In this document: piece by piece, positions 1,094-18,180 of the stretch
Numbering within the stretch: position 1 is the stretch's first letter
How the letters are laid out: each line of letters opens with the position of its first letter
Origin: Candidatus Aenigmatarchaeota archaeon
Lineage (GTDB): Archaea; Aenigmatarchaeota; Aenigmatarchaeia; GW2011-AR5
Assembly: GCA_016187335.1 (NCBI GenBank)
Contig: JACPJW010000001.1
Span: forward strand, 671,159-735,158
Length of the DNA stretch: 64,000 nt
Reading direction: 5' to 3'
Notes under the pieces: generated by a model
What the model was told of the DNA's origin: nothing
Seen by the model: only the letters and a program-made list of their open reading frames with translations
Database searches by the model: none
Made by a program: the position numbers and the translations under genes

Positions 1094-1852
1094 TTATTTC
1101 AGAGTGAATTTTATTCTTTCAAATTCGTCTATTTTTCTCTTTGCGGATTTTAGGTATCTGTATGTTTTCTGTATTCTGATGGCAACCTTGTCTGCATAGG
1201 CCTCTTCTTCATCTGAATCGTGGTGAAACCTTGCCAGCAGCGAAAGCGGCGAGAAAAATTTAAGCAGAGAAAAAGACAGTTTTAATACAGATGCCTTGCG
1301 TTTCAGATGCCCAAGTTCATGCAGTATTACAGCTTCTATCTCTTTTTTGTTAAGAAGGTCAATAAGCCCTGCAGAAAGGAATATCATTGATTTGAATGAT
1401 CTGAAAGAAAATGCGACGGGGTTCGCGTTGTCGATTACGTAAACCTTCGGCATTCTGATTTTCATCCTTGTAGAATGTTTCTCTACAAATCCGACTACGT
1501 GAAAATTCTCCACCTCGTATTTTCTGCTGAAGAACATGTAAAAGCCGGGTATAACTAAAAAACCTGCTACCGTGCTAATTAAAAGCGTTGTTGGAAGCGC
1601 CAGTGAAACTAAGTTCAAAAGGCTGTTTGTACATGCGCAAGTGAAACTGCACATAGTGGCATTTGTAGTCAAGACTACGAATGGGAAAAACAGGAAAATT
1701 AAATGGCCGTAAATAAGCCCGATTTTCGATTTTGTTGAAAGCTTGGATTTCTTCAGAACCAGCAGCGTAATTATGGCAAGCAAAAGGGAGCTTGCCATCA
1801 GCAGTAATTTGTCGGGGTCTATAGAAAACCCGGCATAGCACGCGTCCAACAT
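1094..1852 (-). CDS. BlaR1-like (M56/M48) membrane zinc metallopeptidase
   Basis: N-terminal TM helices, then a HELGH (HExxH) motif. Lies directly downstream of a BlaI-like repressor. Start placed at Met19 (1852), 1 nt after the upstream stop; the ORF track start is 1906. Confidence 0.6.
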   Translation of the reverse strand: MLDACYAGFSIDPDKLLLMASSLLLAIITLLVLKKSKLSTKSKIGLIYGHLIFLFFPFVVLTTNATMCSFTCACTNSLLNLVSLALPTTLLISTVAGFLVIPGFYMFFSRKYEVENFHVVGFVEKHSTRMKIRMPKVYVIDNANPVAFSFRSFKSMIFLSAGLIDLLNKKEIEAVILHELGHLKRKASVLKLSFSLLKFFSPLSLLARFHHDSDEEEAYADKVAIRIQKTYRYLKSAKRKIDEFERIKFTLK

Positions 1853-1853
1853 T

Positions 1854-2237
1854 CTACTTCCTCTTTGAAAACCTTTTATAAAAGTAATTGGCTGCGACAG
1901 TTCCAAAGTTGTTCATAAGCTTGTTTACAGTATGTTCAATAACTGACTCCTCGAATTCATGCTTTGTCTTTTTAGGATAATAAATATAATGTCCGCCACC
2001 ACGACCTTTCTCTATTGTTCTGGATACTATGCCTTTCTGGTGAAGCCTGTCAAGGGTTACCGCAACGCTTGTCAACGCAAAATTTCTGTTTCTTTTCAAT
2101 AGCCTGTGAAGTTCTGCGACACGGGCTTTGTCCATTTTCCACAGAAGGAGCAATATTTCTGTTTCCAGCGGGCTCAAAAGAGTTTTCACGCCCTTTCTGT
2201 CTAACCTTAATTTATTTACCTTCATCATAGAAACCAT
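1854..2237 (-). CDS. BlaI/MecI/CopY-family winged-helix transcriptional repressor
   Basis: LSPLETEILLLLW...ARVAELHRLL...TSVAVTLDRLHQKGIVSR is the penicillinase-repressor family signature. Paired with the BlaR1-like gene. Confidence 0.7.
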   Translation of the reverse strand: MVSMMKVNKLRLDRKGVKTLLSPLETEILLLLWKMDKARVAELHRLLKRNRNFALTSVAVTLDRLHQKGIVSRTIEKGRGGGHYIYYPKKTKHEFEESVIEHTVNKLMNNFGTVAANYFYKRFSKRK

Positions 2238-2399: not shown

Positions 2400-3773
2400 T
2401 TGAAGAAAAAACGCCCCAATACAAGCTATATGACTGACGAAGAAAAAGAAGCTTACGAGAAACTCCAAGAAAAGTTTGAGCTCGTGCCGAAGAAAGAGCA
2501 AAAGAAAAGAATTTCTAAAAAATCCACCCATGATTCTGAGAATGTTGTTTTGCATACAATAGGCATCGTAAAGCAGCCTCTTTACGCAAAAACTTTCGCC
2601 ACAAGCGCTATACTGTTTGGAATTCTGTACACATTTTTATACGGCCTATGGAGGATACCAGTTATAGATTTCGGATTTAACAGGTTCTCTGCTGTAGGGA
2701 TTTTAGATTATGCGTATCTGCTTATTATTACGGCCATCACGGGCTTGATGTTTGCTTTGTTCAAGTATGAAAGGGTTCAACACGTCAAATCAGGTTCCAA
2801 AGCTGGTTTGGGCGGCAGCGGATTGGCGGGTATTGTGTCGGCTATCTGCCCGGTCTGCCAAGGCATAACGATAACCGCATTGGGAGGAACAATAGCCACA
2901 TTGCCGCTTGCATTCCTTGTCCCTTACATAGGATTAATCCAACTTATGACAGTTTTGATTTTAGGTTTCGCGCTTTACCTAAAAGCTAACAGCGTATATA
3001 CGCAAACCTGCATAACGTGCAAAGTTAAGGTTGATAAAAAATTGCACACAGAAATTCCTTCTACGGGCACACCAAAAGCGAAAGAGCCCTTTTTGTACAG
3101 GAATAATATCGCTTTTGGCGCTTTGATTGTTTTGGTTTTGATGCTTGTTGCAAATAATTTTCTTATAACAACTGCTTACGCAAATGCCGGCGCATCTGCC
3201 GGCCTAAACGGCGACAGCGTATCTTTGAAAACGGGATTTGAATACGGCTCTAAAGTTACGCTAAAGCCAATGCCTTTGGCAACCGGCGAAAGCCCGCGAT
3301 TTCAGGGGTATAGAACAATAGTAAAGCCTTTGCCGACCATCAGCGAATTATCATTATCTCCGCCGACTGGTGACGTAGTTCAGGACCTTGTGAATAACGT
3401 TGTTCCAAGAGGGACACCATGGTACGGGCAAGAGGCGGGCGTAACATTTGACGACCCAATACAAGCGCAGCAGCTCTGGGCAAAAGGCAGGGCAATCCAG
3501 CTCGATGCTGCAGAGGAACAGCGATGGAGCAGGATAGTCAATTCATTCACATGCGACTACTGCTGTGGCTCTCCGCAGAATCCAACTATCATAACAAGGT
3601 GCGGTTGTGCGCACTCGGCAGCTGCGCAGGGCATGGCAAAATGGTTTGTAAAGAATTACGGAGACAAATACTCTGACGAAGAAATATACGGCGAAATGGC
3701 AAGATGGTATGCGTTGTGGTATCCCGGTCCTACAGTAAAGAGAATTGCAGAGGAGTTGCAGGCGGCAAATTAG
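2400..3773 (+). CDS. Polytopic membrane protein with an intramembrane CPVC motif and a C-terminal Cys-rich domain
   Basis: Lys/Glu-rich cytoplasmic N-terminus; TM helices containing SAICPVCQG; C-terminal FTCDYCCGSPQNPTIITRCGCAHS cluster. The start could instead be the ATG at 2430. Confidence 0.5.
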   Translation: MKKKRPNTSYMTDEEKEAYEKLQEKFELVPKKEQKKRISKKSTHDSENVVLHTIGIVKQPLYAKTFATSAILFGILYTFLYGLWRIPVIDFGFNRFSAVGILDYAYLLIITAITGLMFALFKYERVQHVKSGSKAGLGGSGLAGIVSAICPVCQGITITALGGTIATLPLAFLVPYIGLIQLMTVLILGFALYLKANSVYTQTCITCKVKVDKKLHTEIPSTGTPKAKEPFLYRNNIAFGALIVLVLMLVANNFLITTAYANAGASAGLNGDSVSLKTGFEYGSKVTLKPMPLATGESPRFQGYRTIVKPLPTISELSLSPPTGDVVQDLVNNVVPRGTPWYGQEAGVTFDDPIQAQQLWAKGRAIQLDAAEEQRWSRIVNSFTCDYCCGSPQNPTIITRCGCAHSAAAQGMAKWFVKNYGDKYSDEEIYGEMARWYALWYPGPTVKRIAEELQAAN

Positions 3774-4311: not shown

Positions 4312-4362
4312 TAGTGGTGATTCAATGGAAAATAAAAAGAAAAAGAAAGGAGGCTGTTGCTG

Positions 4363-4578
4363 ATGGAAAGAAAAGAGCTGCTGATGACGCTGATGATAGG
4401 CGTGCTTCTGCTCACGACAGCCATGCAGACAGTAGCTTTGGCAAGTTTGAGCAACGGACAGGTAGTGGTAAGAGGCAAAGCAGTTGCAAGCAGCCCGGCA
4501 CCAAGCTCAAGCGCGCCGTCGACAGGCGGTTCGGCATCTAGCTTAGCGAACTTGCCAAGCATGGTAGGCGGCTGCTAG
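4363..4578 (+). CDS. Small secreted peptide (71 aa) ending in GGC
   Basis: AAAGGAGG lies 9 nt upstream of the ATG at 4363. Signal-peptide-like LLMTLMIGVLLLTTAMQTVALA, Ser/Pro/Ala-rich body, C-terminus LPSMVGGC. Confidence 0.4.
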   Translation: MERKELLMTLMIGVLLLTTAMQTVALASLSNGQVVVRGKAVASSPAPSSSAPSTGGSASSLANLPSMVGGC

Positions 4579-4601: not shown

Positions 4602-6005
4602 ATGGGCAACAAAACATTAGACATTATTTTATATATTTTTATAGCGTTAGCAGTTGTACTTTCTGTCGTAAATTTTTCGCTTATATCTGCCCGAAGCGAA
4701 AAAGTAAAGGAAGCTGTTCTGTTGGCTGAAAAAGAAAACAAGCCGGCTAAATTGGAATTGATAAAAATTATCTCTTCTTCTTGCCAGGATTGTTTCGATA
4801 TAAATCCTGTTATTGAAACCCTCAAGAAAGCGAACGTCAACGTCACTTCTGAAAAAACTATAGATTTTTCTTCGCAGGAAGCAAAGCAGCTTATAAGTCA
4901 GTACAACATAGAAAAGCTTCCTACTGTTGTAGTTCTGGGTGAAGTCAATAAATCTTCCGTAGTCAATTTATGGAACCAGAACTGGTACGTTGAAATGGCT
5001 GACGGCACGCAGGTTTTAGCTGTTTATTCTGCCGTGGCTCCACCTTATGTGGACGCAGCATCCGGTGATTTCAGGGGTCTTGTAGCCTTAACGCATATTT
5101 TAGACGAATCGTGTCCGGATTGCGCAGACCTTATGCAGGTAATAAGCTTCTTCAAGCAGCAGAATGTCAAGTTCTCAAGCGAGAAAACAATTGACTATAC
5201 TTCTCAAGAAGCCAAAGACCTAATAGCTAAGTTTGAGGTGCAGAAAGTTCCAGCTTTGATTATCTCTAAGGATATTCTAGATTACCCAGCTATATCTCAA
5301 GTATGGGATCAGCTAAATACCAGTGAGAAGCAAGGTTTCTATGCGCTGCACACAACCGTTCCGCCATATAGGGATTTGGCCACAAACAAAATTGAAGGGT
5401 TGGTAACTGTAATTTACCTTAATGACAGCACATGTGCAAGCTGCTACGATGTCCAGATTAACAGGCAGATTCTGGAAAGAAACTTTGGAGTGGTAATTGC
5501 AAACGAGACAACTGATGATATAAATTCTGAAAACGGCAGATCGTTAGTAAAGCAGTACAACATAACAAAGGTTCCTATAATGCTTGCTTCCCCTGATGCC
5601 AGCGTGTATGCAGCCTTTACTGAGATCTGGCAACAGGTTGGGAATGTCGCTAAAGACGGATGGTATGTAATGAGAAAGCCGGAAGTTTTGGGAACTTACA
5701 AGGATCTAGCCAAGGGAATTGTTGTGAATGAGGTAACTGTTTATGCAGGCGAATTTGAATTCCAGCCAAATGCTATCGAGGTCAAGAAAGGTGAAACTGT
5801 TCGGCTGACTTTCATAAACGCGGGGACAGTTGAGCATGACTTTGTTATAGACGAGCTAAATGTAAGAACAAAACGCTTGCAGCCGAGAACATTAGAGACT
5901 ATAGAATTTGTGGCGGACAAAAGCGGCGCGTTTTCATTCTACTGTTCCGTTGAAGGCCATAGGCAGCAGGGTATGGAAGGATCTATTACTATAAGCCAGG
6001 TGTGA
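4602..6005 (+). CDS. Membrane-anchored fusion of three thioredoxin-like CxxC modules and a C-terminal cupredoxin domain
   Basis: N-terminal TM helix. Three repeats each carry CxxC (CQDC, CPDC, CASC) and a downstream K(L/V)P cis-Pro motif. C-terminus VEHDF...FYCSVEGHRQQGMEGSITI gives the His, Cys-x4-His-x4-Met pattern of a type-1 copper site. Confidence 0.65.
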   Translation: MGNKTLDIILYIFIALAVVLSVVNFSLISARSEKVKEAVLLAEKENKPAKLELIKIISSSCQDCFDINPVIETLKKANVNVTSEKTIDFSSQEAKQLISQYNIEKLPTVVVLGEVNKSSVVNLWNQNWYVEMADGTQVLAVYSAVAPPYVDAASGDFRGLVALTHILDESCPDCADLMQVISFFKQQNVKFSSEKTIDYTSQEAKDLIAKFEVQKVPALIISKDILDYPAISQVWDQLNTSEKQGFYALHTTVPPYRDLATNKIEGLVTVIYLNDSTCASCYDVQINRQILERNFGVVIANETTDDINSENGRSLVKQYNITKVPIMLASPDASVYAAFTEIWQQVGNVAKDGWYVMRKPEVLGTYKDLAKGIVVNEVTVYAGEFEFQPNAIEVKKGETVRLTFINAGTVEHDFVIDELNVRTKRLQPRTLETIEFVADKSGAFSFYCSVEGHRQQGMEGSITISQV

Positions 6006-6009
6006 GCAA

Positions 6010-6492
6010 ATGGGGGTCGCAAAGCCAAAATCCAATGTAGTTCTAGGCGCAGTCGTAATAGCCGCTGTGTTTGTTGCAGGACTGATTTACGTTCAATTCA
6101 CAAAGCAGAATGAAGTAGCGGATAATTACCAAGTTGCACCACCCGAAGAAGTCGTTAGGCAATATTTTACGTCGTGGAACAATAGAGACTGGCCCAATAT
6201 GTACGCAACTTTGTCAGACGGATTCAAGAAAATTGATCCCAATGCTAAAGACTTAGCTGCATTCAGAAACTTTGCAAGCTCTCAAGGTATAGAAGGCGTT
6301 AACATAATAAGCATAAAAGAAGAGTCTAATGACGGAACTACAGCTAGCGTTGTATATTCTATTGAATTCACATTATCAAATGGAAGCAAGAGGCCGTTCA
6401 GCGATAGATTTACACTGAAATTCAGGCAAGGCGACATCATTCCCGGCTGGAAGCTTATTCACCCGTACGGCCCCAACATTGATACTTCGTAG
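6010..6492 (+). CDS. Membrane-anchored NTF2/SnoaL-like domain protein
   Basis: N-terminal TM helix; VVRQYFTSWNNRDWPNMYATLSDGF resembles the SnoaL/NTF2 fold signature. Confidence 0.4.
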   Translation: MGVAKPKSNVVLGAVVIAAVFVAGLIYVQFTKQNEVADNYQVAPPEEVVRQYFTSWNNRDWPNMYATLSDGFKKIDPNAKDLAAFRNFASSQGIEGVNIISIKEESNDGTTASVVYSIEFTLSNGSKRPFSDRFTLKFRQGDIIPGWKLIHPYGPNIDTS

Positions 6493-6574
6493 GCGATTGG
6501 ATGAAGAGCAAACTAGTAAAACATATCGGCATGATGACATCATTTTGTTGATAATTAACGCAAGAGGTAAAAAT

Positions 6575-7327
6575 ATGGACAATACAGAAAAATTTGCTTT
6601 TGGGTTTCTTGGAATAGCATCTATAATAGCGGTATTCGCAATGCTCTCTGCGTTTAATATCGTACAGCTCAATTCAAATCCAGCAACAGGAAATTCTGTC
6701 CAGAATTCAATGGGCCAGCGGTTAACAAGAATGAGCTTGTCGCCTTTCGATGTCCAGCTTGCGAAGCAGTTCATGGACAAGAACGGCGACGGCAAATGCG
6801 ATGTATGCGGCATGGATGTGCAGATATGCATAGACAGCGGGCAGATGCAGTGCAATATGGATTCCAAATCTACTATAGGTGTTCTAGGCTCGCAGCATAT
6901 TCATGCTGACTGGAAAATATATATAAACGGCAAAGAATTAGACGATAATTTTTTTGACTCTATAGCTATGAACATGTCAAATGAAAACAATGGCATATCG
7001 AGCAGTTTCATACATGTTGACAAAGGCGCGCCTTCACCGGAAAAAACAGGTAATGTATTGCATATGCATGCTACCGGAGTGCCATTATGGATATTCTTCA
7101 AAAGCGTGGGAATGGATTTCAATAAAGACTGCCTGTCGCTTTCAGATGGACAAAAATTCTGCAACGCTGGGGAAAATACTTTGAAATTCTATGTAAACGG
7201 AAAGCCTAACAGCGAATGGGAAAAATATGTTTTCAACGATCTGGACAAGATTCTGATTTCATATGGAGAAGAAACAGACCTGAGCCAGCAGCTGAATTCA
7301 ATAACGGATTTCGCAAAGAGTCATTGA
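6575..7327 (+). CDS. Membrane-anchored protein with a CxxCGM Cys cluster and a His-rich C-terminal domain (paralogue of 9454..10140)
   Basis: GAGGT lies 6 nt upstream of the ATG at 6575. TM helix; DKNGDGKCDVCGMDVQICIDSGQMQC; HIHADW...LHMHATG...KFYVNGK...NDLDKILISY aligns with the C-terminus of the 9454 gene product. Confidence 0.5.
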   Translation: MDNTEKFAFGFLGIASIIAVFAMLSAFNIVQLNSNPATGNSVQNSMGQRLTRMSLSPFDVQLAKQFMDKNGDGKCDVCGMDVQICIDSGQMQCNMDSKSTIGVLGSQHIHADWKIYINGKELDDNFFDSIAMNMSNENNGISSSFIHVDKGAPSPEKTGNVLHMHATGVPLWIFFKSVGMDFNKDCLSLSDGQKFCNAGENTLKFYVNGKPNSEWEKYVFNDLDKILISYGEETDLSQQLNSITDFAKSH

Positions 7328-7333
7328 TACTTT

Positions 7334-7792
7334 ATGAAAAGGAAAAATAGTAGCAAGGCGCATAAAGAAAAATTTCTCAGCATGTTTAGTGGGCTTTCAG
7401 GTAGCTTGAGCTTTCTGGGCGGATGGCAGGTTTGCCATAATTTATGCCTAGGTATTATAGCTCTGCTGTCAGTGGTGGGCATAGCAGTAGTTGGCATGCC
7501 GTTTTTGTTTTTAACGCAGTACGCTGTATATTTCTGGTCGCTAGCTGCATTGCTTCTTGTACCTACGCTTATATTGTACTGGAAAAACAGAAAATGCATC
7601 TCCGCGAATCTGATACTGTTTAACATAGGCATTGTAATCGCAAGCGTGCCTTTTGCGCAGCTGCAGGCTTATCAAGTAGCATTCTGGCTAGTTGGCGGCG
7701 TTTTAATTGCATCTTCTGTGTGGATGTTTGTAAAGCCGAAGTTTCAAAAGAACAATAAAAATTTAGCTTCTGGTGCTATTTCAGCGCCTTGA
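7334..7792 (+). CDS. Small integral membrane protein with a CxxxC motif
   Basis: About 4 TM helices; GGWQVCHNLCLG at the first helix; 6 nt downstream of the preceding gene. Confidence 0.4.
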   Translation: MKRKNSSKAHKEKFLSMFSGLSGSLSFLGGWQVCHNLCLGIIALLSVVGIAVVGMPFLFLTQYAVYFWSLAALLLVPTLILYWKNRKCISANLILFNIGIVIASVPFAQLQAYQVAFWLVGGVLIASSVWMFVKPKFQKNNKNLASGAISAP

Positions 7793-7910
7793 GCAGAAGT
7801 TTTCGCGCTTCTGGCGTCAATGACTTCCTGAGATTCTTCGTGCATATACAGACGCAGCAGTCGCATGCAGGACAGACACCGCCCGTGCAGCATGATTTTC
7901 TTCGTGTCAT
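7776..7910 (-). CDS. Unannotated 44-aa cysteine-rich peptide (8 Cys), metallothionein-like
   Basis: ATG at 7910 is preceded by AAAGGAGGT (GGAGG 8 nt upstream) and lies 27 nt downstream of the ccdA stop. Translation: MTRRKSCCTGGVCPACDCCVCICTKNLRKSLTPEARKLLLKALK. Below the 60-aa cutoff of the ORF track. Confidence 0.5.
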   Translation of the reverse strand: MTRRKSCCTGGVCPACDCCVCICTKNLRKSLTPEARKLLLKALK

Positions 7911-7937
7911 AGCATCAACCTCCTTTGAGCAAAAATA

Positions 7938-8780
7938 TTACGGGAAAAATAAGGCAACAAATTGCTTAGCGTAAAGCACTGTAATTATGATGAATAACCC
8001 AGCCAGCATGAGAACGATTGCGGATATTTTTAGTATCTTATGGCTCGACTCGCGCAGGAAATTTATCTTAGCGGTGCCGACAAGAAGAGAAACCGTCAGC
8101 ATCAAAATTCCCATTGTCAGCGAATAAATAACAAAAGCCAAAAGCGCAGCATTAAACCCGCTAGCCAACGCAAGGACAATCAATCCAGCAAGAATAGGGC
8201 CGGTGCAGCCTATATTTCCCAAGTTATAACCGAACCCGTAGAAGAAATAATTCTCTGAGCTCTTTTTTCCCGAAACAAATTTATGACTTATGCTTTTGAA
8301 CAGTTGCCCCTGTACTGAAATATGAAAGAATTGCAGTACGCCAAGGATGAACAAAATTCCGCCTACTATTGCCCTTATTGTCAGAGTAATACCCGAAAGC
8401 TGGCCGCTTTCTGCAACCGAAAAGGCAGACCCAATTCCCAGGCCAATGAAGGCAAGAATAACGCCCAGAATTATGTTGAATGAGACTAATCCTGCCGATG
8501 CCAAAACCCCGTTTCTAAAAATAGCACCCTTGTGTAAGTTCTTGCCCTTCCCGTATAGTGAGAGGTATGCTGGCAGCAAACCGAAAGAGCATGGGGAAAA
8601 GAATGTTGCCAGGCCTGCAAATACTGCAACAATCATCAGAGGCAGCACGCCCAAAGTAGCCATATTTTTTGCGAATTCAAGAAAGCCAAAATACCCTGCA
8701 ACCGTGATTGCTATCAATACTGCGAGGAATACTACATATAAGCCAGCTTGTCCCTTGGCATCTGAACCCATAAAAATCAC
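7938..8780 (-). CDS. ccdA: CcdA/DsbD-family transmembrane thiol-disulfide electron transporter
   Basis: FFSPCSFGLLPAYL and GNIGCTGPILAGL are the two conserved Cys-containing TM motifs of the DsbD_2/CcdA family. Confidence 0.75.
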   Translation of the reverse strand: MIFMGSDAKGQAGLYVVFLAVLIAITVAGYFGFLEFAKNMATLGVLPLMIVAVFAGLATFFSPCSFGLLPAYLSLYGKGKNLHKGAIFRNGVLASAGLVSFNIILGVILAFIGLGIGSAFSVAESGQLSGITLTIRAIVGGILFILGVLQFFHISVQGQLFKSISHKFVSGKKSSENYFFYGFGYNLGNIGCTGPILAGLIVLALASGFNAALLAFVIYSLTMGILMLTVSLLVGTAKINFLRESSHKILKISAIVLMLAGLFIIITVLYAKQFVALFFP

Positions 8781-8816
8781 GCTTTAATAGTTTCTTTTGT
8801 ATACTATTAGTGTTGT

Positions 8817-9209
8817 ATGAAATATAAGGCAGGCAGTTTCATGGCAGAAACCAGTTTACGCGCAGTAACTAATGGAAAAGAATGCAAAATGGTAGGCGGC
8901 GGCTATTGCCCAAAGCCCCTGGAAATCGCTGCTTCTTTCCTCAGTAGGAAGTGGACGCTAAGCATAATAGTAACGATAGGAAATTTCGGCTCGCTAAGGT
9001 TCAACGATTTGCTCAGGCGAATTGAAGGTATAACACAGAAAACATTGTCCGAAAGGCTGAAAGAGCTTGAGCGGCACAATATAATAATCCGTCGCGCTTT
9101 CAATGAAAAGCCTCCCCGTGTCGAATATTCGCTTACGCCAAACGGTCATAATGTTCGAAAAGCTGTTTTGCCGCTTCTGAAACTTGCTGAAAAAAAACAC
9201 TTTCATTAA
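8817..9209 (+). CDS. HxlR-family transcriptional regulator
   Basis: CP...LSRKWTLSIIVTIGNFGSLRFNDLLRRIEGITQKTLSERLKELERHNII...EYSLTPNG is the HxlR signature. Divergent from ccdA. Confidence 0.75.
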   Translation: MKYKAGSFMAETSLRAVTNGKECKMVGGGYCPKPLEIAASFLSRKWTLSIIVTIGNFGSLRFNDLLRRIEGITQKTLSERLKELERHNIIIRRAFNEKPPRVEYSLTPNGHNVRKAVLPLLKLAEKKHFH

Positions 9210-9453
9210 AAGAAACGCTTAAACATTACATATTTAAACATCCGATGCAATTTTATTCAATTCAAATTTTTGTAAAGGTTATGTGATAAAATGGCTGAAG
9301 ATTCAATAACCTTCAAGAAAAGCACGGTCCAGCTTATCGCTGTTCTCGTTGTCGGCTTGATTATAGGATAACCCAATACTGGGATGAGTCCGACATATGC
9401 GGCAACTGAGCTGTTTAAAAATTTTGGCATTAATCTAAGCAAAGAGACAAATT

Positions 9454-10140
9454 ATGGAAGAAAAAGAAGAAAAACACCAATGCAGTGAATGCGGAAAGGA
9501 GTTCAGCGCGGCGGAAGGTCTGGCGCAGCACATGCGCGACAAGCATTCGGCAATGACCAGCCATGAACTCAAGGAACAGCGCAAAAAAGAGAGGGAAGAT
9601 CAGCTGAAAAAAGAAAAGGATAAGTCGGAGCGCTCAAAGCTGACTAGAAAGATCCTGATTGTCGGCGGTGCTTTTCTTTTACTGTCAGGGCTGATTTACG
9701 CTTTTCTTGTCCTTAGCAAAGGCGGCGGCGAATCGCGCCTTGCCGACGAGGAATATATCCTGCGTACCAATCTGAGGACGCACAGCGGCGTAAGCATGCA
9801 CATACATCCCCATTTGATAATAATCGCAAACAACGAAAACGTGAATATACCGGCTGAGATAGGCATTGAAGGCGGCATAATGAGAGTTATACATACCCAT
9901 GACGCAACAGGAACAATTCATCTGGAATCGCCGGTTCCTAAGGACTTCACTTTAGGCCAATTCTTCTTCGTGTGGTCGCGAACCAGCGGCGAGCCGAAAG
10001 TATTCAATTCGTCTTGCATCCTCAGCTATTGCAATAACGGAACGAAGGCGGTGAAGATGTTCGTGAACGGCAAAGAAAGCGACGAATACGAGAATTACAT
10101 CATGCACGATCTGGACAGGATAGAGATAAGATACGAATAA
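9454..10140 (+). CDS. C2H2 zinc finger / TM helix / extracytoplasmic His-rich domain protein
   Basis: HQCSECGKEFSAAEGLAQHMRDKH fits C-x2-C-x12-H-x4-H. Lys/Glu-rich linker, TM helix (ILIVGGAFLLLSGLIYAFLVL), then HIHPHL...IHTHDATGTIH...MFVNGK...HDLDRIEIRY, paralogous to 6575..7327. Confidence 0.55.
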   Translation: MEEKEEKHQCSECGKEFSAAEGLAQHMRDKHSAMTSHELKEQRKKEREDQLKKEKDKSERSKLTRKILIVGGAFLLLSGLIYAFLVLSKGGGESRLADEEYILRTNLRTHSGVSMHIHPHLIIIANNENVNIPAEIGIEGGIMRVIHTHDATGTIHLESPVPKDFTLGQFFFVWSRTSGEPKVFNSSCILSYCNNGTKAVKMFVNGKESDEYENYIMHDLDRIEIRYE

Positions 10141-11349: not shown

Positions 11350-12363
11350 ATGCCAGAACACATTCACGCAGCCAGCAAAACAAAATGGGACGTTGTAATC
11401 ATCGGCGCAGGCTCTGCAGGTCTCACTGCAGCGGTTTATACCTGCAGGAAAAAGCTGTCCACGCTGATTTTAAGCGTTGACGTAGGCGGTCAGACAATCC
11501 TGACAAACCATATTGAGAATTATCCAGGCTTTTTCAAAGAGACACCCGGCTATCCGTCCGGGCCAAAACTTATGCAGATTTTTGAGGAGCAGGCAAAGCA
11601 TTTCGGCGCAGAGATAATAATGGGCAAGGTGACGAAGGTAGAGGTTGTGAATGAAAGCCCCACGCCGGAAAATCCTTACAAGTTTGTTCTGGAATTAAGC
11701 AACGGCGAGCGGTACGAAGCAAGGGTTGTTTTGCTGGCATACGGCAAGGTTCCCCGCGAGCTTGGCATCCCCGGCGAGAAAAAGTTCATAGGCCGCGGCG
11801 TCAGCACGTGCGCAACATGCGACGCTCCCTTATTTAGAAACAAAAACGTTGCTGTTATAGGCGGCGGCAACTCAGCTGTTGAGGCCGCTGAGCTTTTGAC
11901 AAAGTTCGCCAGCAAGGTTTACCTCGTCCATCGGAGGGACCAGTTCCGCGCTGACGAAATAACCATGGACAAGGTAAAGGCGTCGCCGAAAGTAGAACTT
12001 GTTTTAAACAGCATGCCTGCAGAAATCAAAGGCGACAAGTTTGTAAGCGGTCTGGTTGTCCAGAATGTCAATACTCAGGAAACAAGAGAACTTCCTGTTC
12101 ACGGTGTTTTCGTCGAGATCGGCTATATCGTGGTGACGGATTTTGTCAAAGATTATGTCGAGGTGAACAAGGCCAATGAAATTGTCGTTAATGAAAACTG
12201 CGAGACGAGGACGCCCGGTTTGTTCTCGGCAGGTGATTTAACAAACATACCGTTCAAGCAGACCATAACTTCCGCAGGCCAGGGCGCGATAGCCGGCTTG
12301 TCCGCCTACAACTACCTGATGCGCCTGCAGGGCAAGGCAGGCATTAAGGCTGATTGGGCTTGA
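11350..12363 (+). CDS. trxB: Thioredoxin-disulfide reductase
   Basis: FAD motif DVVIIGAGSAGLTAAVY, redox-active CATCDA, NAD(P)H motif VAVIGGGNSAVEEA-like. Confidence 0.85.
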   Translation: MPEHIHAASKTKWDVVIIGAGSAGLTAAVYTCRKKLSTLILSVDVGGQTILTNHIENYPGFFKETPGYPSGPKLMQIFEEQAKHFGAEIIMGKVTKVEVVNESPTPENPYKFVLELSNGERYEARVVLLAYGKVPRELGIPGEKKFIGRGVSTCATCDAPLFRNKNVAVIGGGNSAVEAAELLTKFASKVYLVHRRDQFRADEITMDKVKASPKVELVLNSMPAEIKGDKFVSGLVVQNVNTQETRELPVHGVFVEIGYIVVTDFVKDYVEVNKANEIVVNENCETRTPGLFSAGDLTNIPFKQTITSAGQGAIAGLSAYNYLMRLQGKAGIKADWA

Positions 12364-12788: not shown

Positions 12789-13391
12789 ATGGCACATGTA
12801 TTGAAAGAACTTCCTTGGGACCCGAAGAAAGTCACGTGCGTTTCGCAGCAGGTCGTGCAGTGGCACCACGGCACGCATCACGCTGGTTACGTAAAAAAGC
12901 GCAATGAAATTGAGGAAAAGATAGATAAATTCGACAAAGCCGCTGCCAATGCAAATTATTCTGATTGGGGCGAGCTGAAGCGCAGAGAAACCTTTAACGC
13001 TTCCGGCATTATACTGCACGAGATATACTGGGAAAACATGGGCGGCGACGGCAAACACGACATGGACGCTGAAATTGTGAAGGCAATCATTCATTCTTTC
13101 GGTTCTTTCGAGAAGTGGAAAGAGGATTTCGTTGCCACGGCAAAAGCAAGCTTAGGCTGGGCAATATTGTGCTGGGACCCGTCTGACGGCAAGCTGCACA
13201 ACTTCCTGGTTGATTTCCACAACAACGGCGCTGTGTGGGGTTCCGTGCCGTTAATAGCCATAGACGTTTTTGAGCACGCATACTACCATGATTACGGGCC
13301 GGACAGGGCGAAATACATAGAAGCTTTCCTGAACAATCTGGACTGGGCAGCAATCAACGACAGGTTCAGGAAGAACGTGCCGAAACATTGA
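12789..13391 (+). CDS. sod: Fe/Mn superoxide dismutase
   Basis: HHGTHHAGYV and DVFEHAYYHDY metal-ligand motifs. Confidence 0.9.
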   Translation: MAHVLKELPWDPKKVTCVSQQVVQWHHGTHHAGYVKKRNEIEEKIDKFDKAAANANYSDWGELKRRETFNASGIILHEIYWENMGGDGKHDMDAEIVKAIIHSFGSFEKWKEDFVATAKASLGWAILCWDPSDGKLHNFLVDFHNNGAVWGSVPLIAIDVFEHAYYHDYGPDRAKYIEAFLNNLDWAAINDRFRKNVPKH

Positions 13392-13500: not shown

Positions 13501-13659
13501 ATGCCAACAAAAAAATCTTCAGCGAAGCAAAAATTATACAAATGTAAGCACTGCGGTTTTGGTTACAGAGAGAAAAAATGGCAGCGCGCCTGCGAAGCAT
13601 GGTGCTCGAAGCACAACAGCTGCAACATCATGATAACGAGGCACGTAGTGAAGAAGTGA
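13501..13659 (+). CDS. Small (52 aa) Cys/His-rich zinc-ribbon-like protein
   Basis: ATG is preceded by GGTGG 7 nt upstream. Translation: MPTKKSSAKQKLYKCKHCGFGYREKKWQRACEAWCSKHNSCNIMITRHVVKK. Below the ORF-track cutoff. Confidence 0.35.
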   Translation: MPTKKSSAKQKLYKCKHCGFGYREKKWQRACEAWCSKHNSCNIMITRHVVKK

Positions 13660-14090: not shown

Positions 14091-14887
14091 TCAAACCACT
14101 TCTGCAGGTTTCCAGACAAAATATTTCCCAGATCGCGCATCGAAATGTTAAGGATACTTGCGACATGAATTATGGATTCCAGCGAATAGTCGCAGCTTAC
14201 ATAAGGAACGTCAGAACCATATACTATGCTTGTTTTGTCCGCTTTGTCTATGAGGTTGTAAAGGTCAAATACGCTTGTCGCCGACGTTTCGAAATAAACA
14301 TACCTTGATTTTGACATTTTTCTGATGACCCTGTCCATGTCGATAAAAGCTGAATGACCTAAAATAAGGCGGAGTCTCGGGAAATCTTTCACGACCATTT
14401 CCAGTTCGACCGATATTTCATTCAGCCCGTGACCTGTATGTATCAGCACTGGTAAGTCGTGCTTTTCTGCTTTGGCATATACTTTCATTGCTTCGTCGGA
14501 TGCAATGTCAAAATGCTGCGAGCGTGGATGCAGCTTTATGCCCATGAATCCCTGTGATGCACGCTTCTCAAACTCTTCTTTCCATTTTCTTTTTGGATTC
14601 AGGCGAAAGAATGGAATAAGCTTTCTCTTGTGGGATTTGTAAGCGTTGTATACAAAGTCGTTTGGCTTTGAAAAACTCTGGTCGTAGGGATCATTTAGTG
14701 GAAATATAACTGCCTTTTCTATTCTGCAGCTTTTGATATCCTTCATCAACTCATTTAATGAAAAAAGTGTTCCGTCCTTGTCTTTGCCTATGTGTGTATG
14801 AGCATCCCATACCTCGAACTGGTCGAAAACCCACTCTGCTACCTTGAAAGCTTTCTCGCCAACAAAGTATTTTGTCCATTTAGGCAT
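14087..14887 (-). CDS. Metal-dependent amidohydrolase (TIM-barrel, Amidohydro_2-like)
   Basis: WDAHTHIG near the N-terminus; later HTGH and GHS His motifs; GSDVPY near the C-terminus. Confidence 0.6.
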   Translation of the reverse strand: MPKWTKYFVGEKAFKVAEWVFDQFEVWDAHTHIGKDKDGTLFSLNELMKDIKSCRIEKAVIFPLNDPYDQSFSKPNDFVYNAYKSHKRKLIPFFRLNPKRKWKEEFEKRASQGFMGIKLHPRSQHFDIASDEAMKVYAKAEKHDLPVLIHTGHGLNEISVELEMVVKDFPRLRLILGHSAFIDMDRVIRKMSKSRYVYFETSATSVFDLYNLIDKADKTSIVYGSDVPYVSCDYSLESIIHVASILNISMRDLGNILSGNLQKWFE

Positions 14888-14936
14888 AATGACACAGAAA
14901 ACTATGAGATTTAAATCTTTTATACATTTTTATTCC

Positions 14937-15869
14937 ATGTTAAAGATAGGAATCGTTTTTGACAGGGTCAAATGGATTCAAAGACCTTTCGACAAGAGGT
15001 ACTCTTATTCTTACAGGATTCTGTCAAAGGTGGCAAGACAGCACGGCATTGAAGTCTATATAAGCGACCTGAAAAATTACAGGGCGAGAAAATTTGCAAA
15101 ATGCTGGTTTTGCGAAAAAAGTTGGAAAATACTCCGCAACAGGTATATTGACATGGTTTTTGACAAAATGAGCACTTCCGGCAGGAATGTCCTGAAAAGA
15201 ATGCGGGTGAGAATGATGAGGGAATTGCCTATTGTTAACCACCCCGAACTGAACGAAATTTCTGAGGACAAGTATCTTTCTTATACGATCTTCCGGGAAT
15301 ATTTCCCGAAAACATACCTTCTAAGCACAAGCGGCATAAGGAAGGCTCCGGCAGGACTTTATGTAATGAAACCTAGGCACGGCTCAAGAGGAGAATTTAT
15401 CAGAATAATGGAAAAGGAAAAGCTACAACCGAAGAAAGACTTTATTTTTCAGGAATTCATCGACACGTCAGGCGGCATTAAGGATGTCATAAACAAAGTT
15501 CACGACTTGAGGCTGGTCTCAATAAACGGAAAAATAATCAAGGCATACCTTAGAGTCCAAAAAAAAGGCATTATAAACAATATGGATACCGGAGAGTTTG
15601 AGATTCATATCGAAAAATCTAAAGTACCAGAAAGCGCAGTTAAAATATTCAGGATAGTTGACAGGAAACTTAGTAAGTACGATTTCAGGTTCTATACAAT
15701 AGATTTTTTGGTTGACAAAGATCAGAAACCTTGGATATGCGAGCTAAACACTCATCTGGGTCTGGGGATTGCAGGTAAAAAAACGAAAGAAATATATTTT
15801 AACATGTACAGAGAAATTCTGCTTGCTATGAAAAGGTATTATCTAAAACTCGGGTCCGGAAAAAACTAG
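14937..15869 (+). CDS. ATP-grasp ligase (YheC/YheD- or RimK-like), paralogue 1
   Basis: KPRHGSRGE..., FQEFIDTSGG...HDLRLVSINGKII, TIDFLVDKDQKPWICELN. Start moved to Met32 (14937) to match its paralogue. Confidence 0.6.
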   Translation: MLKIGIVFDRVKWIQRPFDKRYSYSYRILSKVARQHGIEVYISDLKNYRARKFAKCWFCEKSWKILRNRYIDMVFDKMSTSGRNVLKRMRVRMMRELPIVNHPELNEISEDKYLSYTIFREYFPKTYLLSTSGIRKAPAGLYVMKPRHGSRGEFIRIMEKEKLQPKKDFIFQEFIDTSGGIKDVINKVHDLRLVSINGKIIKAYLRVQKKGIINNMDTGEFEIHIEKSKVPESAVKIFRIVDRKLSKYDFRFYTIDFLVDKDQKPWICELNTHLGLGIAGKKTKEIYFNMYREILLAMKRYYLKLGSGKN

Positions 15870-15872
15870 ACT

Positions 15873-16805
15873 CTAGCCAATGCAGGATTTTACCGCCTTC
15901 ATGATGCACCTGCAGATTTTTTTATAGATTTTCTGTTGCCCGCCCACCTTTATTTTGTAATACAATCGAAATCCGGGATGCGAGTTGAGTTCGATTATCC
16001 AAGGCCTCTGTTTCTTGTCAATTAGAAAATCAATCGAATAAAGCCTAGGAACAAATTTATTGAATTTGCTGTCAACATAATTTGCTATTCTCATGACTTT
16101 TTTAGGGATTTTCCTTATTCTTACGAGTCTGCCGCCAAGCGAAATGTTGCTAATAAGACCCTTTCTAGGAACCCTGAGGTAAAAATCCAGAATTTTTCCG
16201 TTTAGAACCAGCAGCCTAAGGTCGTGAATTCCTTTGTACACGCCTTTTATTCCTGCGGATGTGTCTACAAATTCCTGCACTATATAGTCTTTCTTCAGTT
16301 TTCTTAGCCTGTACTTTTCCATTACCTTGACGCCCGCACCACCGGCACCGAATCTCGGCTTCACAACGGCAAGACGGTTTTTGATTTTTTTTAATCCTTT
16401 CAGGGAAATGGAAGTTTTCGGAACGTACCTTCTGAATAACTTGTGCGTGAGATATTTGTCGTTGCATAGATCCTCAATAAAAGGGTCGTTCATCATCAAT
16501 AACACTTTCTTAAATTTTTTTCTCAGGTTCCGCATGAAATCATGGTGCTTCCTGTTGAAGCTTAAAACCCTGTCAAAAACGAAATTGACAGGCACGCTTT
16601 TCTCTTTTCTTTTTTCAAGCAGGTTCCAGCACAGAAGAAATTTCCCTCTATTGTACCATTCTGGCTTCGCTACAACGACCTTTACACCAATTTTCTTTGC
16701 AACCTCAGAGAATTTCCTATAAGCTTTGAAGGTACTGCGATCATTGAAAGGCTTGTTCAGAAAAATGCCGTCAGTATCATTATACGTTATTCCCAGAGTT
16801 TTCAT
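15873..16805 (-). CDS. ATP-grasp ligase, paralogue 2
   Basis: KPRFGAGGAG..., VQEFVDTSAG...HDLRLLVLNGKIL, SIDFLIDKKQRPWIIELN. The ATG at 16805 lies 4 nt after the GCS2 stop. Confidence 0.6.
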   Translation of the reverse strand: MKTLGITYNDTDGIFLNKPFNDRSTFKAYRKFSEVAKKIGVKVVVAKPEWYNRGKFLLCWNLLEKRKEKSVPVNFVFDRVLSFNRKHHDFMRNLRKKFKKVLLMMNDPFIEDLCNDKYLTHKLFRRYVPKTSISLKGLKKIKNRLAVVKPRFGAGGAGVKVMEKYRLRKLKKDYIVQEFVDTSAGIKGVYKGIHDLRLLVLNGKILDFYLRVPRKGLISNISLGGRLVRIRKIPKKVMRIANYVDSKFNKFVPRLYSIDFLIDKKQRPWIIELNSHPGFRLYYKIKVGGQQKIYKKICRCIMKAVKSCIG

Positions 16806-16809
16806 GAAA

Positions 16810-18180
16810 TCACTCCGCAAGTCTTGATACAAGCTTTTTTGTATTCTCTATGTCCTTTTCAATGTTTCGCGATATTCTGAGCGCAATATCTGCTGCTGCT
16901 TTGTTTGGCAAAGATTCTTTATAACCTATTTTTCTTGCTTCAGAAATTATCTCATCCGACACGGTTTTTTTCTTCTGGACCATTTCTTTAAGCGGCTTAA
17001 GGAATTTTTTTCTGTCAGAAGGCAATATCTTGGAAGCCAGTTTCAGGAAGCGCGAACAGCAAAGCCTTAAATCAGGGCTTTCCATCCCGTAAAGCGCTGA
17101 ATCGCGCTGCAGCACGTTGTAAACGTAGCTGTAAGGCGGTATGAATATTCTGTCGCCTTCCATTTTGAACGGCTCGCGTATCGCAATGTCGCTGTCAACA
17201 ACATTCACATAATCTTCATGGATTGATTTCAAAATGAACTTCATTGTTACAGCCAGCGACGCCAGAACTTCAAACCTGTTCATGTCCATGCCGCGCATCT
17301 CAAAAGTGCCGTTAGGGTTTATCTTCACAGGCGACCAGTTAGTGTCAAGAACAGAACCGTAGAGGGCTAGTGTTTTGATGTTAATTCCCAGCTTCTTGAT
17401 AAGCAGCGACCATTCCCTGAATCTGTCATCTATCAAGTGCATTATGTCAAGAAGCGTGTGATGATAAGGCGGCAGCCCGCCGAAATCGTGGAAATCAGAG
17501 TACAAGCCGTCAACGCCAAAAATCCTGCTGCCTCTGTAAAACATCAGCCGCGAATCCTTGCCGTAAAGCCTTCCCTCATAATAAGGCGAAGACTGGGCGA
17601 ATGTCGTGAACACGGGATCCATCGCAACAAGCATGTTGTAGCTTCCGACCATTGTCTGGCTTATCCTGGATTTAATGAAAATTTTCAGATGCTTGCTGAT
17701 GTAATCAAACATGCCCCTCGGCAAGGTATAGTGGCAATGGAAGCCGATGCAACGGCCGGCAATCTTGAATCTTTCTTTTCCGAATATCTTCTCCTTTATT
17801 CCGTAGCCTCCTTTCTTTCTCATTGAAGGGCTGAATTTTCCCGGATATGTTCCGTAGAAGTAAGGCATGTAACCCATTTTTTCCATGGCGTCAAGAAGCT
17901 GCTGGGTTCTTTCAAGCATATCGTGCATTGTGCCAGTTATTGTCCGGGAAGGAAACGTATCGATTTCAATCATGTTATTGGCGCATTCTTTCTTCGCGTT
18001 GCCCGGAATTTTTTCTAGGATTTTGTCTGCAGAATGCGAAACATTGCCATCGCTGTCAATTATCATGAACTCTGCTTCAAGCCCTATCATATGATGTTTC
18101 AATGAGCGTTTCCGCATTCCCAAGATTTTTCTTAGGTCCTCGGCTATTTCTTCTGCTATGTTAGGATTTTTTTCTTTCAT
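16810..18180 (-). CDS. Glutamate-cysteine ligase family 2 (YbdK-like carboxylate-amine ligase)
   Basis: IGLEAEFMIID near the N-terminus and the overall size fit the GCS2 family. Confidence 0.6.
   Translation of the reverse strand: MKEKNPNIAEEIAEDLRKILGMRKRSLKHHMIGLEAEFMIIDSDGNVSHSADKILEKIPGNAKKECANNMIEIDTFPSRTITGTMHDMLERTQQLLDAMEKMGYMPYFYGTYPGKFSPSMRKKGGYGIKEKIFGKERFKIAGRCIGFHCHYTLPRGMFDYISKHLKIFIKSRISQTMVGSYNMLVAMDPVFTTFAQSSPYYEGRLYGKDSRLMFYRGSRIFGVDGLYSDFHDFGGLPPYHHTLLDIMHLIDDRFREWSLLIKKLGINIKTLALYGSVLDTNWSPVKINPNGTFEMRGMDMNRFEVLASLAVTMKFILKSIHEDYVNVVDSDIAIREPFKMEGDRIFIPPYSYVYNVLQRDSALYGMESPDLRLCCSRFLKLASKILPSDRKKFLKPLKEMVQKKKTVSDEIISEARKIGYKESLPNKAAADIALRISRNIEKDIENTKKLVSRLAE

Follow-up and report, generated by a model that had tools for sequence, protein, structure and literature searches.

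A conserved 44-residue polycysteine peptide of DPANN archaea, encoded beside HxlR and ArsR regulators and possibly metallothionein-like

Introduction

What kind of product, if any, is encoded by an open reading frame (ORF) of 44 codons, eight of them for cysteine, that lies shortly behind a ccdA-like gene in the genome of an archaeon? The question is raised by a stretch of 64,000 nucleotides from Candidatus Aenigmatarchaeota archaeon (contig JACPJW010000001.1, positions 671,159 to 735,158), which we refer to as the window. A preliminary description of the window had singled out this ORF and read it as an unannotated gene coupled to ccdA, with a product that looked like a metallothionein or Cu(I)-thiolate peptide, or possibly a redox peptide or the precursor of a ribosomally synthesized and post-translationally modified peptide (RiPP). 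We find that substitution patterns mark the 44-codon frame as a genuine gene under purifying selection, and that its product represents a peptide family that is widely conserved in DPANN archaea and was previously undescribed. A metallothionein-like role is the best-supported candidate function that sequence and gene context suggest for the peptide. The case shows that ORF-length cutoffs conceal a conserved functional gene.

The gene and its product

The gene and its putative ribosome-binding site have the following positions:

7776..7910, minus strand: 44-aa polycysteine microprotein gene (ATG 7910..7908, TAG 7778..7776; from the ORF translation)
7919..7923, minus strand: Shine-Dalgarno-like GGAGG (CCTCC on the plus strand), 8 nt before the peptide ATG

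The predicted peptide (MTRRKSCCTGGVCPACDCCVCICTKNLRKSLTPEARKLLLKALK) has a basic N-terminus and a core with eight cysteines (residues 7-23), followed by two short helices. The cysteines are spaced CC-x4-C-x2-C-x-CC-x-C-x-C, which includes the motifs CC, CxxC, CxCC and CxC, and they make up 18% of the 44 residues (<10 kDa) and 47% of the core, while F, W, Y and H are absent. The window has 615 six-frame ORFs of 30 aa or more, and in no other of them do eight cysteines fall within any 17 residues; the runner-up has five, and the maximum in 50 Markov-1 random windows was six. The cysteine density of the ORF exceeds chance.

The gap between the stop of the ccdA-like gene (7938) and the peptide ATG is 27 nt, and at its 3' end the peptide gene overlaps the stop region of a convergent 152-aa gene (7334..7792) by 17 nt. 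The coordinates, translation, cysteine motifs, GGAGG and 27-nt spacing on the same strand that had been given in the preliminary description were all reproduced, with the correction that the gene has to be placed on the minus strand, which that description omitted. The exact product has no entry in a collection of 153 billion gene positions, in which the neighbouring 467-aa gene is present, and this is consistent with the term “unannotated” used for it in the preliminary description. No second copy of the peptide was found in the window by tblastn.

Coding status and distribution

A single-sequence search with the peptide returned two close relatives, and an exhaustive representative search returned two clusters at 63% identity. 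A profile search recovered 21 proteins, every one of 40-77 aa and either unnamed or “hypothetical”, and when one genome of each GTDB species was scanned by pattern and tblastn, 38 loci emerged, all of them in DPANN-type archaeal metagenome-assembled genomes (MAGs) or single-amplified genomes. The lineages represented are Woesearchaeota, Aenigmatarchaeota, Nanoarchaeota and Iainarchaeum, with some records labelled generically as “uncultured archaeon” or “uncultured Methanosarcinales”, and metagenome contigs add further homologues. Identity within the family is 60-80% across several DPANN phyla. Of 46 related loci (individual loci are numbered with the prefix L), 44 have kept an intact peptide frame, mostly of exactly 44 codons; the exceptions are L041, which is apparently frameshifted in a poly-A run, and L035, which has no motif match.

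The substitutions follow the codon structure of this frame. For 35 distinct 129-nt homologue sequences, the nonsynonymous divergence in the sense frame (pN) is 0.195 vs a synonymous divergence (pS) of 0.83 (pN/pS 0.24), and the entropy at codon positions 1/2/3 is 0.60/0.46/1.37. The pN/pS ratio exceeds 1 in three of five alternative frames (both forward shifted and two reverse). Each of the eight cysteines is invariant (35/35), with a mixture of TGC and TGT codons, and six other positions (I22, L27, L31, A35, L39 and L43) are likewise invariant, the leucine positions using 5-6 codons. The family consensus is M-A-[KR]-[RK]-K-P-C-C-x-G-G-V-C-P-x-C-D-C-C-I-C-I-C-T-K-[DE]-L-[KR]-K-x-L-[TS]-P-E-A-[RK]-K-L-L-x-x-A-L-x, and in 38 of 40 non-redundant loci a Shine-Dalgarno-like motif, in many cases GGAGGTGAT, stands before the start codon. 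Both the homologue search and the comparison of synonymous with nonsynonymous changes, which the preliminary description had proposed as checks, thus speak for a conserved short gene.

These patterns bear directly on the idea that the ORF yields no functional protein and is instead part of the ccdA 3' untranslated region, a chance ORF or a cysteine-rich leader peptide that regulates a downstream gene. The ORF is indeed very short and is missing from the gene calls for this genome, but its substitutions are codon-aware, its start, Shine-Dalgarno motif and length are conserved, at most loci the gene occurs with no ccdA upstream, and an Rfam search over 6500..9500 found no RNA family. We regard this explanation as virtually excluded, and the specific variant that had been named as a refutation, an untranslated tail of ccdA, is ruled out by the codon-aware conservation and by the loci without ccdA. 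On the opposite strand, an ORF at 7789..7974 (plus) is open in all homologues. It was considered as a gene and rejected: its wobble positions coincide with those of the sense frame, its pN/pS is higher (0.39 vs 0.24), and its openness is therefore taken as an artefact of the constraint on the sense strand.

Composition and predicted structure

In composition the peptide fits the operational definition of a metallothionein, to judge from its small size, its CC, CxC and CxxC motifs and its lack of aromatic residues and histidine. Inspection of the sequence revealed no signal peptide or transmembrane (TM) segment, and both flanks of the cysteine block are basic; on these grounds the peptide is most likely cytosolic and perhaps membrane-proximal. 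An AlphaFold2 model based on 20 homologues (mean pLDDT, the predicted local distance difference test score, 67) has helices at residues 25-30 and 33-43, with pLDDT values of 73-82. The only sequence match in the PDB was to the Helicobacter pylori CagY repeat KECEKLLTPEARKLLEE (6odi/6x6j). This likeness involves peptide residues 25-43 (TKELKKxLTPEARKLL) and reaches an E-value of ~1e-8 when the repeats are summed, with only ~8 bits for each unit, and we judged it to be coincidental.

Two further proposals turn mainly on the arrangement of the cysteines. A small iron-sulfur protein, serving as a cluster carrier or sensor, would accord with the high cysteine density and with the anaerobic groundwater origin of the hosts that the titles of related genome records imply. 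The ferredoxin-type spacing CxxCxxCxxxC(P) is missing, though, CC and CxC are atypical ligands for such clusters, no Fer4-type Pfam match was obtained, and no iron-sulfur assembly genes were seen near the peptide loci, which makes this proposal very unlikely. The RiPP precursor of the preliminary description, whether of the sactipeptide, ranthipeptide or lanthipeptide type, has in its favour the general appearance of a small cysteine-rich peptide. The cysteine block is N-terminal, however, and preceded by no leader, the sequence hardly varies between phylum-level lineages over its full length, putative core included, which is the opposite of what RiPP cores do, and genes for radical-SAM, YcaO or LanB/C/M maturases or for a protease/exporter are absent among the conserved neighbours. 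We therefore set this proposal aside as exceedingly improbable.

Regulators and the control region

The gene neighbourhoods were described by comparing the ORFs of the 40 non-redundant loci with the proteins of the window cluster, and all counts below refer to these loci. The elements that concern regulation in the window are:

8841..9209, plus strand: HxlR-family (DUF24) regulator (PF01638, 80.7 bits vs a cutoff of 20.8), divergent from the ccdA-peptide unit
8783..8809, minus strand: promoter/operator-like block TAATAGTATACAAAAGAAACTATTAAA, conserved across loci, between HxlR and ccdA

An HxlR-family regulator occurs anywhere in the flank in 28/40 loci, and in 24 it is divergent from the peptide gene and directly adjacent to it. 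In five others of the count an ArsR/SmtB metalloregulator lies directly upstream on the same strand, its stop 1 to ~15 nt before the peptide ATG; in all, a transcription-factor gene adjoins the peptide gene in 29/40 loci. The HxlR orthologues (~28) have all kept an N-terminal cysteine pair, C-x7-C-P, and it is the cysteine of the “CP” that senses redox state in Bacillus YodB and HypR. The ArsR protein matches NCBIfam HTH_metalloreg (70 bits vs a cutoff of 55) and has the C-terminus CKYLCGC. One MAG (CAZBGH01) contains two paralogues of the peptide (L013 and L033), of which the 44-aa copy is linked to HxlR and the 38-aa copy to ArsR, and therefore the same type of effector is wired to two sensors.

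The block between HxlR and ccdA contains the inverted repeat ATAGT-N11-ACTAT (8787..8807), and a TATA-like CTTATATT lies just upstream of it (~8821..8828). It is unique in the window, with 0 occurrences expected by chance. A nearly identical block, TA(A/T)TAGTATACAAAAGAAACTATTAAA, is found in 16 loci at 54-59 nt before the first cysteine (CC) codon, that is, ~40 nt before the peptide ATG and just past the HxlR start on the opposite strand. In the window and in L016 the corresponding distance is ~910 nt, with ccdA lying between. Other HxlR loci (e.g., L022, L024 and L025) have, by eye, a different inverted repeat, TTACTTT-N7-AAAGTAA, in the same place. To judge from conservation, the true start of HxlR in the window is probably the ATG at 8841 (MAETSLR...) rather than position 8817; together with the ccdA start at 8771, this leaves a shared control region of 69 nt. 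The arrangement suggests that HxlR may repress the peptide gene through the operator-like block.

With a regulator so often next door, the peptide could itself be a regulatory metallochaperone, which passes a metal ion or an oxidation state to HxlR or ArsR in the manner of CopZ-CopY or of MerH and the archaeal MerR, with the helix hairpin as the docking element. Besides the adjacency, the near invariance of the non-cysteine residues in the helices agrees with this, as do the pairing of one effector type with two unrelated regulator families and the two paralogues in one MAG. Those two repressor folds also argue against a single docking interface, however, and the adjacency is explained equally well if the peptide gene is simply the target of the regulator, so that we consider a role of this kind improbable.

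The downstream membrane protein

A protein of ~155 aa with four TM segments, which we call TM_CxxC, is encoded directly downstream of the peptide gene on the same strand in 18/40 loci. In another arrangement, seen in four loci, the gene directly downstream on the same strand encodes p371, a membrane protein that combines a His-rich loop with a Cys-rich ectodomain, and starts 1 nt past the peptide stop. In the alignment of TM_CxxC, which has four predicted TM segments, one glycine and both cysteines of a C-P-x-C in TM3 are invariant, the proline of this motif is nearly so, and a C-terminal CxxC is present in most members. The topology was derived by eye from the charge distribution.

The window has no free-standing copy of TM_CxxC, and the corresponding module is part of a larger protein:

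2400..3773, plus strand: 457-aa membrane protein, of which the N-terminal part (nt ~2625..3050) is the window copy of the TM_CxxC module

Residues ~76-217 of this protein align to the TM_CxxC family, including CPVC and then CITC. The remainder is homologous to p371 (36% identity), which follows the peptide in L001 and L002, and the C-terminal extracytoplasmic domain carries CDYCCG...RCGCAHS.

TM_CxxC contains no Pfam domain, and a search of a database of 5.8 billion proteins returned only entries named “hypothetical protein” without Pfam domains. Among the 21 members there are seven NCBIfam matches to mercury-transport families, and the three top families by best E-value are MerT_RC607 (2e-4), MerTP (1.7e-4) and MerE (5e-3). 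MerT_RC607 is also the family with the largest number of matching members (four, as compared to two for MerE and one for MerTP). An hhalign comparison with MerT, for which the reference sequence was verified against annotated plasmid genes, gave a score of 28.8, as compared to 11.3 +/- 2.0 (maximum 15.6) for 100 column shuffles and 14.5 for the reversed sequence. It places TM3-TM4 and the tail of TM_CxxC over TM1-TM2 and the cytosolic loop of MerT, with the cysteine pairs matched. What TM_CxxC shares with MerT, MerE and MerF is a cysteine pair in a TM helix and a second, predicted cytosolic, cysteine pair, and the comparison is suggestive of a distant MerT-like module. A sub-threshold “RiPP_CPAC” match that turned up in the searches concerned a TM_CxxC member and not the peptide.

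ccdA, thiol-redox genes and copper genes

The following features of the window concern thiol-redox chemistry:

7938..8780, minus strand: CcdA/DsbD-like membrane protein with PC..P and GC.GP motifs in TM segments, co-oriented with the peptide gene
11350..12363, plus strand: thioredoxin-reductase-like flavoprotein (TrxR), near the peptide locus
12789..13391, plus strand: Fe/Mn superoxide dismutase (SOD), near the peptide locus
13501..13659, plus strand: DUF7128-like zinc-ribbon protein, near the peptide locus
4602..6005, plus strand: triple thioredoxin-cupredoxin fusion of 467 aa, membrane-anchored, with three CxxC thioredoxin-like domains and a C-terminal cupredoxin

The CcdA-like protein has no Pfam match at E<=1 and a weak match in NCBIfam to the DsbD part of TsoB. 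Over 227 aa it shares 30% identity with a PF13386 DsbD_2 protein of L002, and it resembles an L005 homologue that carries PF02683 (blastp E<=1e-4). Its true start is probably the ATG at 8771, preceded by GTGAT. CcdA/DsbD proteins occur in the flank in 14/40 loci, and in only three is ccdA directly adjacent upstream of the peptide gene; the link to ccdA is lineage-specific and not a property of the family, and the coupling emphasized in the preliminary description does not hold as a general trait. Because the conserved block sits ~910 nt upstream in the window lineage, ccdA looks to have been inserted there between the HxlR-linked promoter/operator and the peptide gene, which keeps its own Shine-Dalgarno motif with ccdA upstream. 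Scans of the ccdA-peptide gap with bacterial-type promoter and terminator models, which are unsuited to archaea, gave nothing above background.

Read from the window by itself, the short gap within one unit might point to the peptide as a cytosolic disulfide-relay partner of CcdA and/or of the TM CxxC protein, in effect a minimal substitute for thioredoxin that is reduced by TrxR. The presence of CcdA/DsbD in a third or so of the flanks and of an adjacent TrxR in loci of the L005 type are in keeping with this. The rarity of adjacent ccdA, which looks like a secondary insertion, the lack of a thioredoxin fold or of a CxxC active-site context in the peptide, and a complement of eight cysteines that far exceeds the need render a relay function decidedly doubtful.

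TrxR lies directly upstream of the peptide gene in L005, L006 and L044 and is found in 10/40 flanks, and the DUF7128 zinc-ribbon protein is found in 16. Copper genes make up the other part of the company. In L042, a clear copper island, the peptide gene is accompanied by genes for ArsR and TM_CxxC, for a heavy-metal-associated (HMA) protein, a Met-rich protein, an HMA-TM protein and a cupredoxin, and also for regulators of the TRASH/PadR type and a P1B ATPase in which CPC, YN and MxxSS motifs are present. L004 has a cupredoxin, HxlR, the peptide, TM_CxxC, DUF7128 and an HMA protein, and CopA is present in the flank in 7/40 loci. From these copper genes and from the TrxR, SOD and thioredoxin-cupredoxin proteins of the peptide loci, we conclude that the genomic company is one of soft-metal and thiol-redox homeostasis, with copper the metal named most often.

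The redox half of this company could be taken to mean that the peptide is a thiol buffer or switch, induced through HxlR, which provides a sacrificial or reversible pool of thiols or a zinc-release switch, and for which any bound metal is incidental. Such a peptide would scavenge oxidants and electrophiles in organisms without the synthesis of low-molecular-weight thiols. It would suit the fact that an HxlR with an N-terminal cysteine is the commonest neighbour, the TrxR genes in the flanks, the SOD and TrxR of the window, and the CcdA and thioredoxin-like proteins of the cluster. It would leave the ArsR/SmtB operons, the MerT-like partner and the copper islands unexplained, and in a reducing cytosol a cluster of eight thiolates would take up zinc or copper anyway. 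We see this as an unlikely explanation, if a serious one.

Proposed function

The reading that we prefer is that of a cytosolic metal-thiolate peptide, similar to a metallothionein or metallochaperone and induced by thiol or soft-metal stress, and we hold the chances that it is correct to be about even. The eight cysteines would bind soft metal ions as a metal-thiolate cluster, with Cu(I) as the best guess and Zn, Cd and Hg as alternatives. The helix hairpin at the C-terminus would offer a surface for self-association, membrane docking or a protein partner. The peptide gene would be the primary target of the adjacent thiol- or metal-sensing repressor, as a rule a divergent HxlR with a conserved inverted repeat as its binding site and, in another lineage, an ArsR/SmtB encoded upstream; under the control of such a sensor, the peptide would therefore be made upon thiol-reactive stress caused by a soft metal, an oxidant or an electrophile. 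For the MerT-like partner with four TM segments, with its CPxC in the membrane and its C-terminal CxxC in the cytosol, the peptide might serve as the acceptor, sink or chaperone of an ion. In the window, the same HxlR-controlled promoter would also drive the ccdA inserted upstream of the peptide gene, and this co-control would link the response to the supply of exported reducing power to the thioredoxin-cupredoxin proteins nearby. Of all this, the analysis shows the coding status, conservation and distribution of the gene, its linkage to regulator and partner, the operator-like block and the secondary position of ccdA; metal binding, the metal concerned, the direction of transfer and repression by HxlR are inferred.

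Several observations weigh against this reading. Metallothioneins do not usually have strongly conserved non-cysteine residues or a helix hairpin as this peptide does, and the cysteine core is modelled by AlphaFold2, which takes no account of metals, with medium confidence (pLDDT ~52-69). The peptide matched no Pfam family at E<=1, metallothionein families included, and no NCBIfam family, and a Foldseek search of the PDB with the model gave 0 matches. The matches of the partner to MerT, MerE and MerTP are all below the curated cutoffs, its hhalign probability to MerT is 42.8%, and no MerA-like reductase was seen in the loci, which leaves the benefit of import in question. Members of the HxlR family are known mostly for sensing electrophiles and oxidants and not metals; TrxR, SOD, thioredoxins and CcdA in the vicinity fit a purely redox role equally well; and copper genes are found in a minority of loci only. 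The metallothionein idea of the preliminary description thus stands as far as composition and metal/thiol context go, and finds no counterpart among the described metallothionein families. The conservation of the helices may indicate that the peptide acts more specifically, as a switch or relay that binds a partner, and the hairpin suggests either self-association around a shared cluster or docking to the cytosolic cysteine pair of the MerT-like protein or to the regulator.

A bolder version, which we put forward with little confidence, combines these elements into a “take up and sequester” module of DPANN archaea. The MerT-like protein would hand Cu(I), Hg(II) or Cd(II) to the peptide, and the peptide would act both as the main thiol/metal buffer of the cytosol, in place of low-molecular-weight thiols for whose synthesis these reduced genomes would lack the means, and as a relay of the signal to HxlR or ArsR. 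If so, a metallothionein-type system would be on record in Archaea for the first time, and HxlR-family regulators would have a target of a new class.

Should the peptide prove to be a metal-thiolate protein, Archaea would have their first documented metallothionein-like family. The module in which the peptide recurs also comprises a regulator, the MerT-like membrane protein and a zinc-ribbon protein, and the label “coupled to ccdA” should better be replaced by one that describes the gene as HxlR/ArsR-controlled and MerT-like-partnered. DPANN archaea have minimal genomes and are mostly unculturable; a conserved 44-aa effector with a clear promoter/operator offers a workable way to study how these cells deal with oxidants, copper and further soft metals.

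Other genes of the cluster

The remaining features of the cluster are:

7334..7792, plus strand: 152-aa membrane protein with a CHNLC motif, convergent to the peptide gene and conserved as part of the cluster; homologues in L005, L008-L011, L016, L021 and L029
3745..4311, plus strand: Met-rich protein of the copper/extracytoplasmic thiol cluster
4357..4578, plus strand: small TM protein ending in LPSMVGGC, a cluster member

The Met-rich protein has runs such as NMMGSDMMSGNMMRSMMMG that recall periplasmic Cu(I)-binding Met motifs, and a homologue is encoded in the L042 copper island (5542..6045). The tail of the small TM protein, [DN]-L-P-S-M-V-G-G-C-stop, recurs in L001 (1564..1761), L010, L011, L016, L021, L035 and L042, in proteins of 65-90 aa with an N-terminal membrane anchor and a Ser/Pro/Ala-rich linker, and the same tail ends the 370-aa p371 (L001, 177..1289). 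It could be an extracytoplasmic metal/thiol site with a terminal cysteine, or a processing signal. The 467-aa fusion is likely an extracytoplasmic client of the CcdA-type exporter of reductant. Its versions in L001 (386 aa) and L032 apparently lack the cupredoxin, and the L001 copy ends soon after the third thioredoxin-like domain.

At 1094..2237 on the minus strand of the window, a gene for a BlaI/MecI/CopY-type repressor (127 aa) overlaps that for a membrane protein resembling BlaR1/M56-M48 metalloproteases (270 aa), and a BlaI-BlaR1-like pair adjoins the cluster in L008 and L010 as well. A CopY-type role in copper regulation is possible for the BlaI-like repressor, which lacks the C-terminal CxC motifs. 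Two paralogues at 6479..7327 and 9454..10140, both on the plus strand, share a domain with HxH...H.H motifs (HIHADWKIYINGK... and HIHPHLIIIANN...). They match no Pfam family, are present in 13-14 of the 40 loci, and in one of them the domain is preceded by an N-terminal C2H2 zinc finger. Two convergent ATP-grasp (RimK/YheCD-like) genes lie at 14844..16832; they were considered as enzymes that modify the peptide, and at a distance of 7-9 kb from its gene they are probably unrelated.

Comparison with known systems

A literature search for archaeal metallothioneins, this peptide family, HxlR in DPANN archaea, DUF7128 and GDCCVxC found nothing relevant in the incomplete library that was available. 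As no paper on an archaeal metallothionein was among the results, the remark in the preliminary description that such peptides are essentially undescribed in archaea agrees with what we found.

The closest parallel in kind is MymT of Mycobacterium tuberculosis, which was also an unannotated small ORF and binds up to six Cu(I) (PMC7558416). Like the prokaryotic and fungal copper metallothioneins (MymT, and those of Neurospora and yeast), the DPANN peptide is tiny, is densely set with CC, CxC and CxxC, and has no aromatic residues. As with SmtB-SmtA of Synechococcus, its gene stands beside that of a metal- or thiol-sensing regulator, smtB and smtA being a divergent gene pair. Unlike the known metallothioneins, it has no Pfam similarity and possesses a conserved C-terminal half of two helices. 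The loci differ as well, in that the regulator is usually an HxlR protein, a membrane CxxC partner is encoded, and the hosts are DPANN archaea; metal binding in this family is putative.

A second comparison is with the small partners of MerT in mer operons (MerP, the GDCCVxC proteins and the archaeal MerH), where a small cysteine protein is likewise encoded beside a MerT-type gene. The peptide loci resemble these operons in having an adjacent regulator of a metal-responsive type and a membrane partner with a cysteine pair. They differ in the absence of MerA and in a partner that is only distantly MerT-like, and the peptide itself has neither the HMA fold or signal peptide of MerP nor the TRASH domain of MerH. 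The Salinibacter ruber plasmid pSR60 (L045, 1513..2289) independently shows a MerT-type gene with a small Cys-rich protein encoded behind it: a MerT-family/HMA fusion is followed by a 72-aa (seleno)protein with a GDCCVxC domain; the fusion has an in-frame TGA just before an “ACC” motif, possibly for selenocysteine. The peptide and the GDCCVxC proteins share a local DCCV motif. Homology between them was rejected (hhalign probability 0.9%, no NCBIfam match), and the context is only analogous.

Among copper chaperones, the K-P-C-C-x of the peptide recalls the Cu(I)-binding motif KPCCxC of Cox17. We treat this as a lead only; the role proposed here would likewise be the handover of Cu(I) to a partner. 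Unlike Cox17 and CopZ, the peptide has no twin Cx9C, no HMA βαββαβ fold and no family match.

The control region, finally, has its counterpart in the HxlR/DUF24 regulons of Bacillus (YodB, CatR and HypR), where a divergent regulator with an N-terminal CP controls a detoxification effector and a short inverted-repeat operator lies between the two genes. The targets in Bacillus are detoxification enzymes (azoreductase, nitroreductase and dioxygenase), whereas the putative target here is a polycysteine microprotein and the host is an archaeon.

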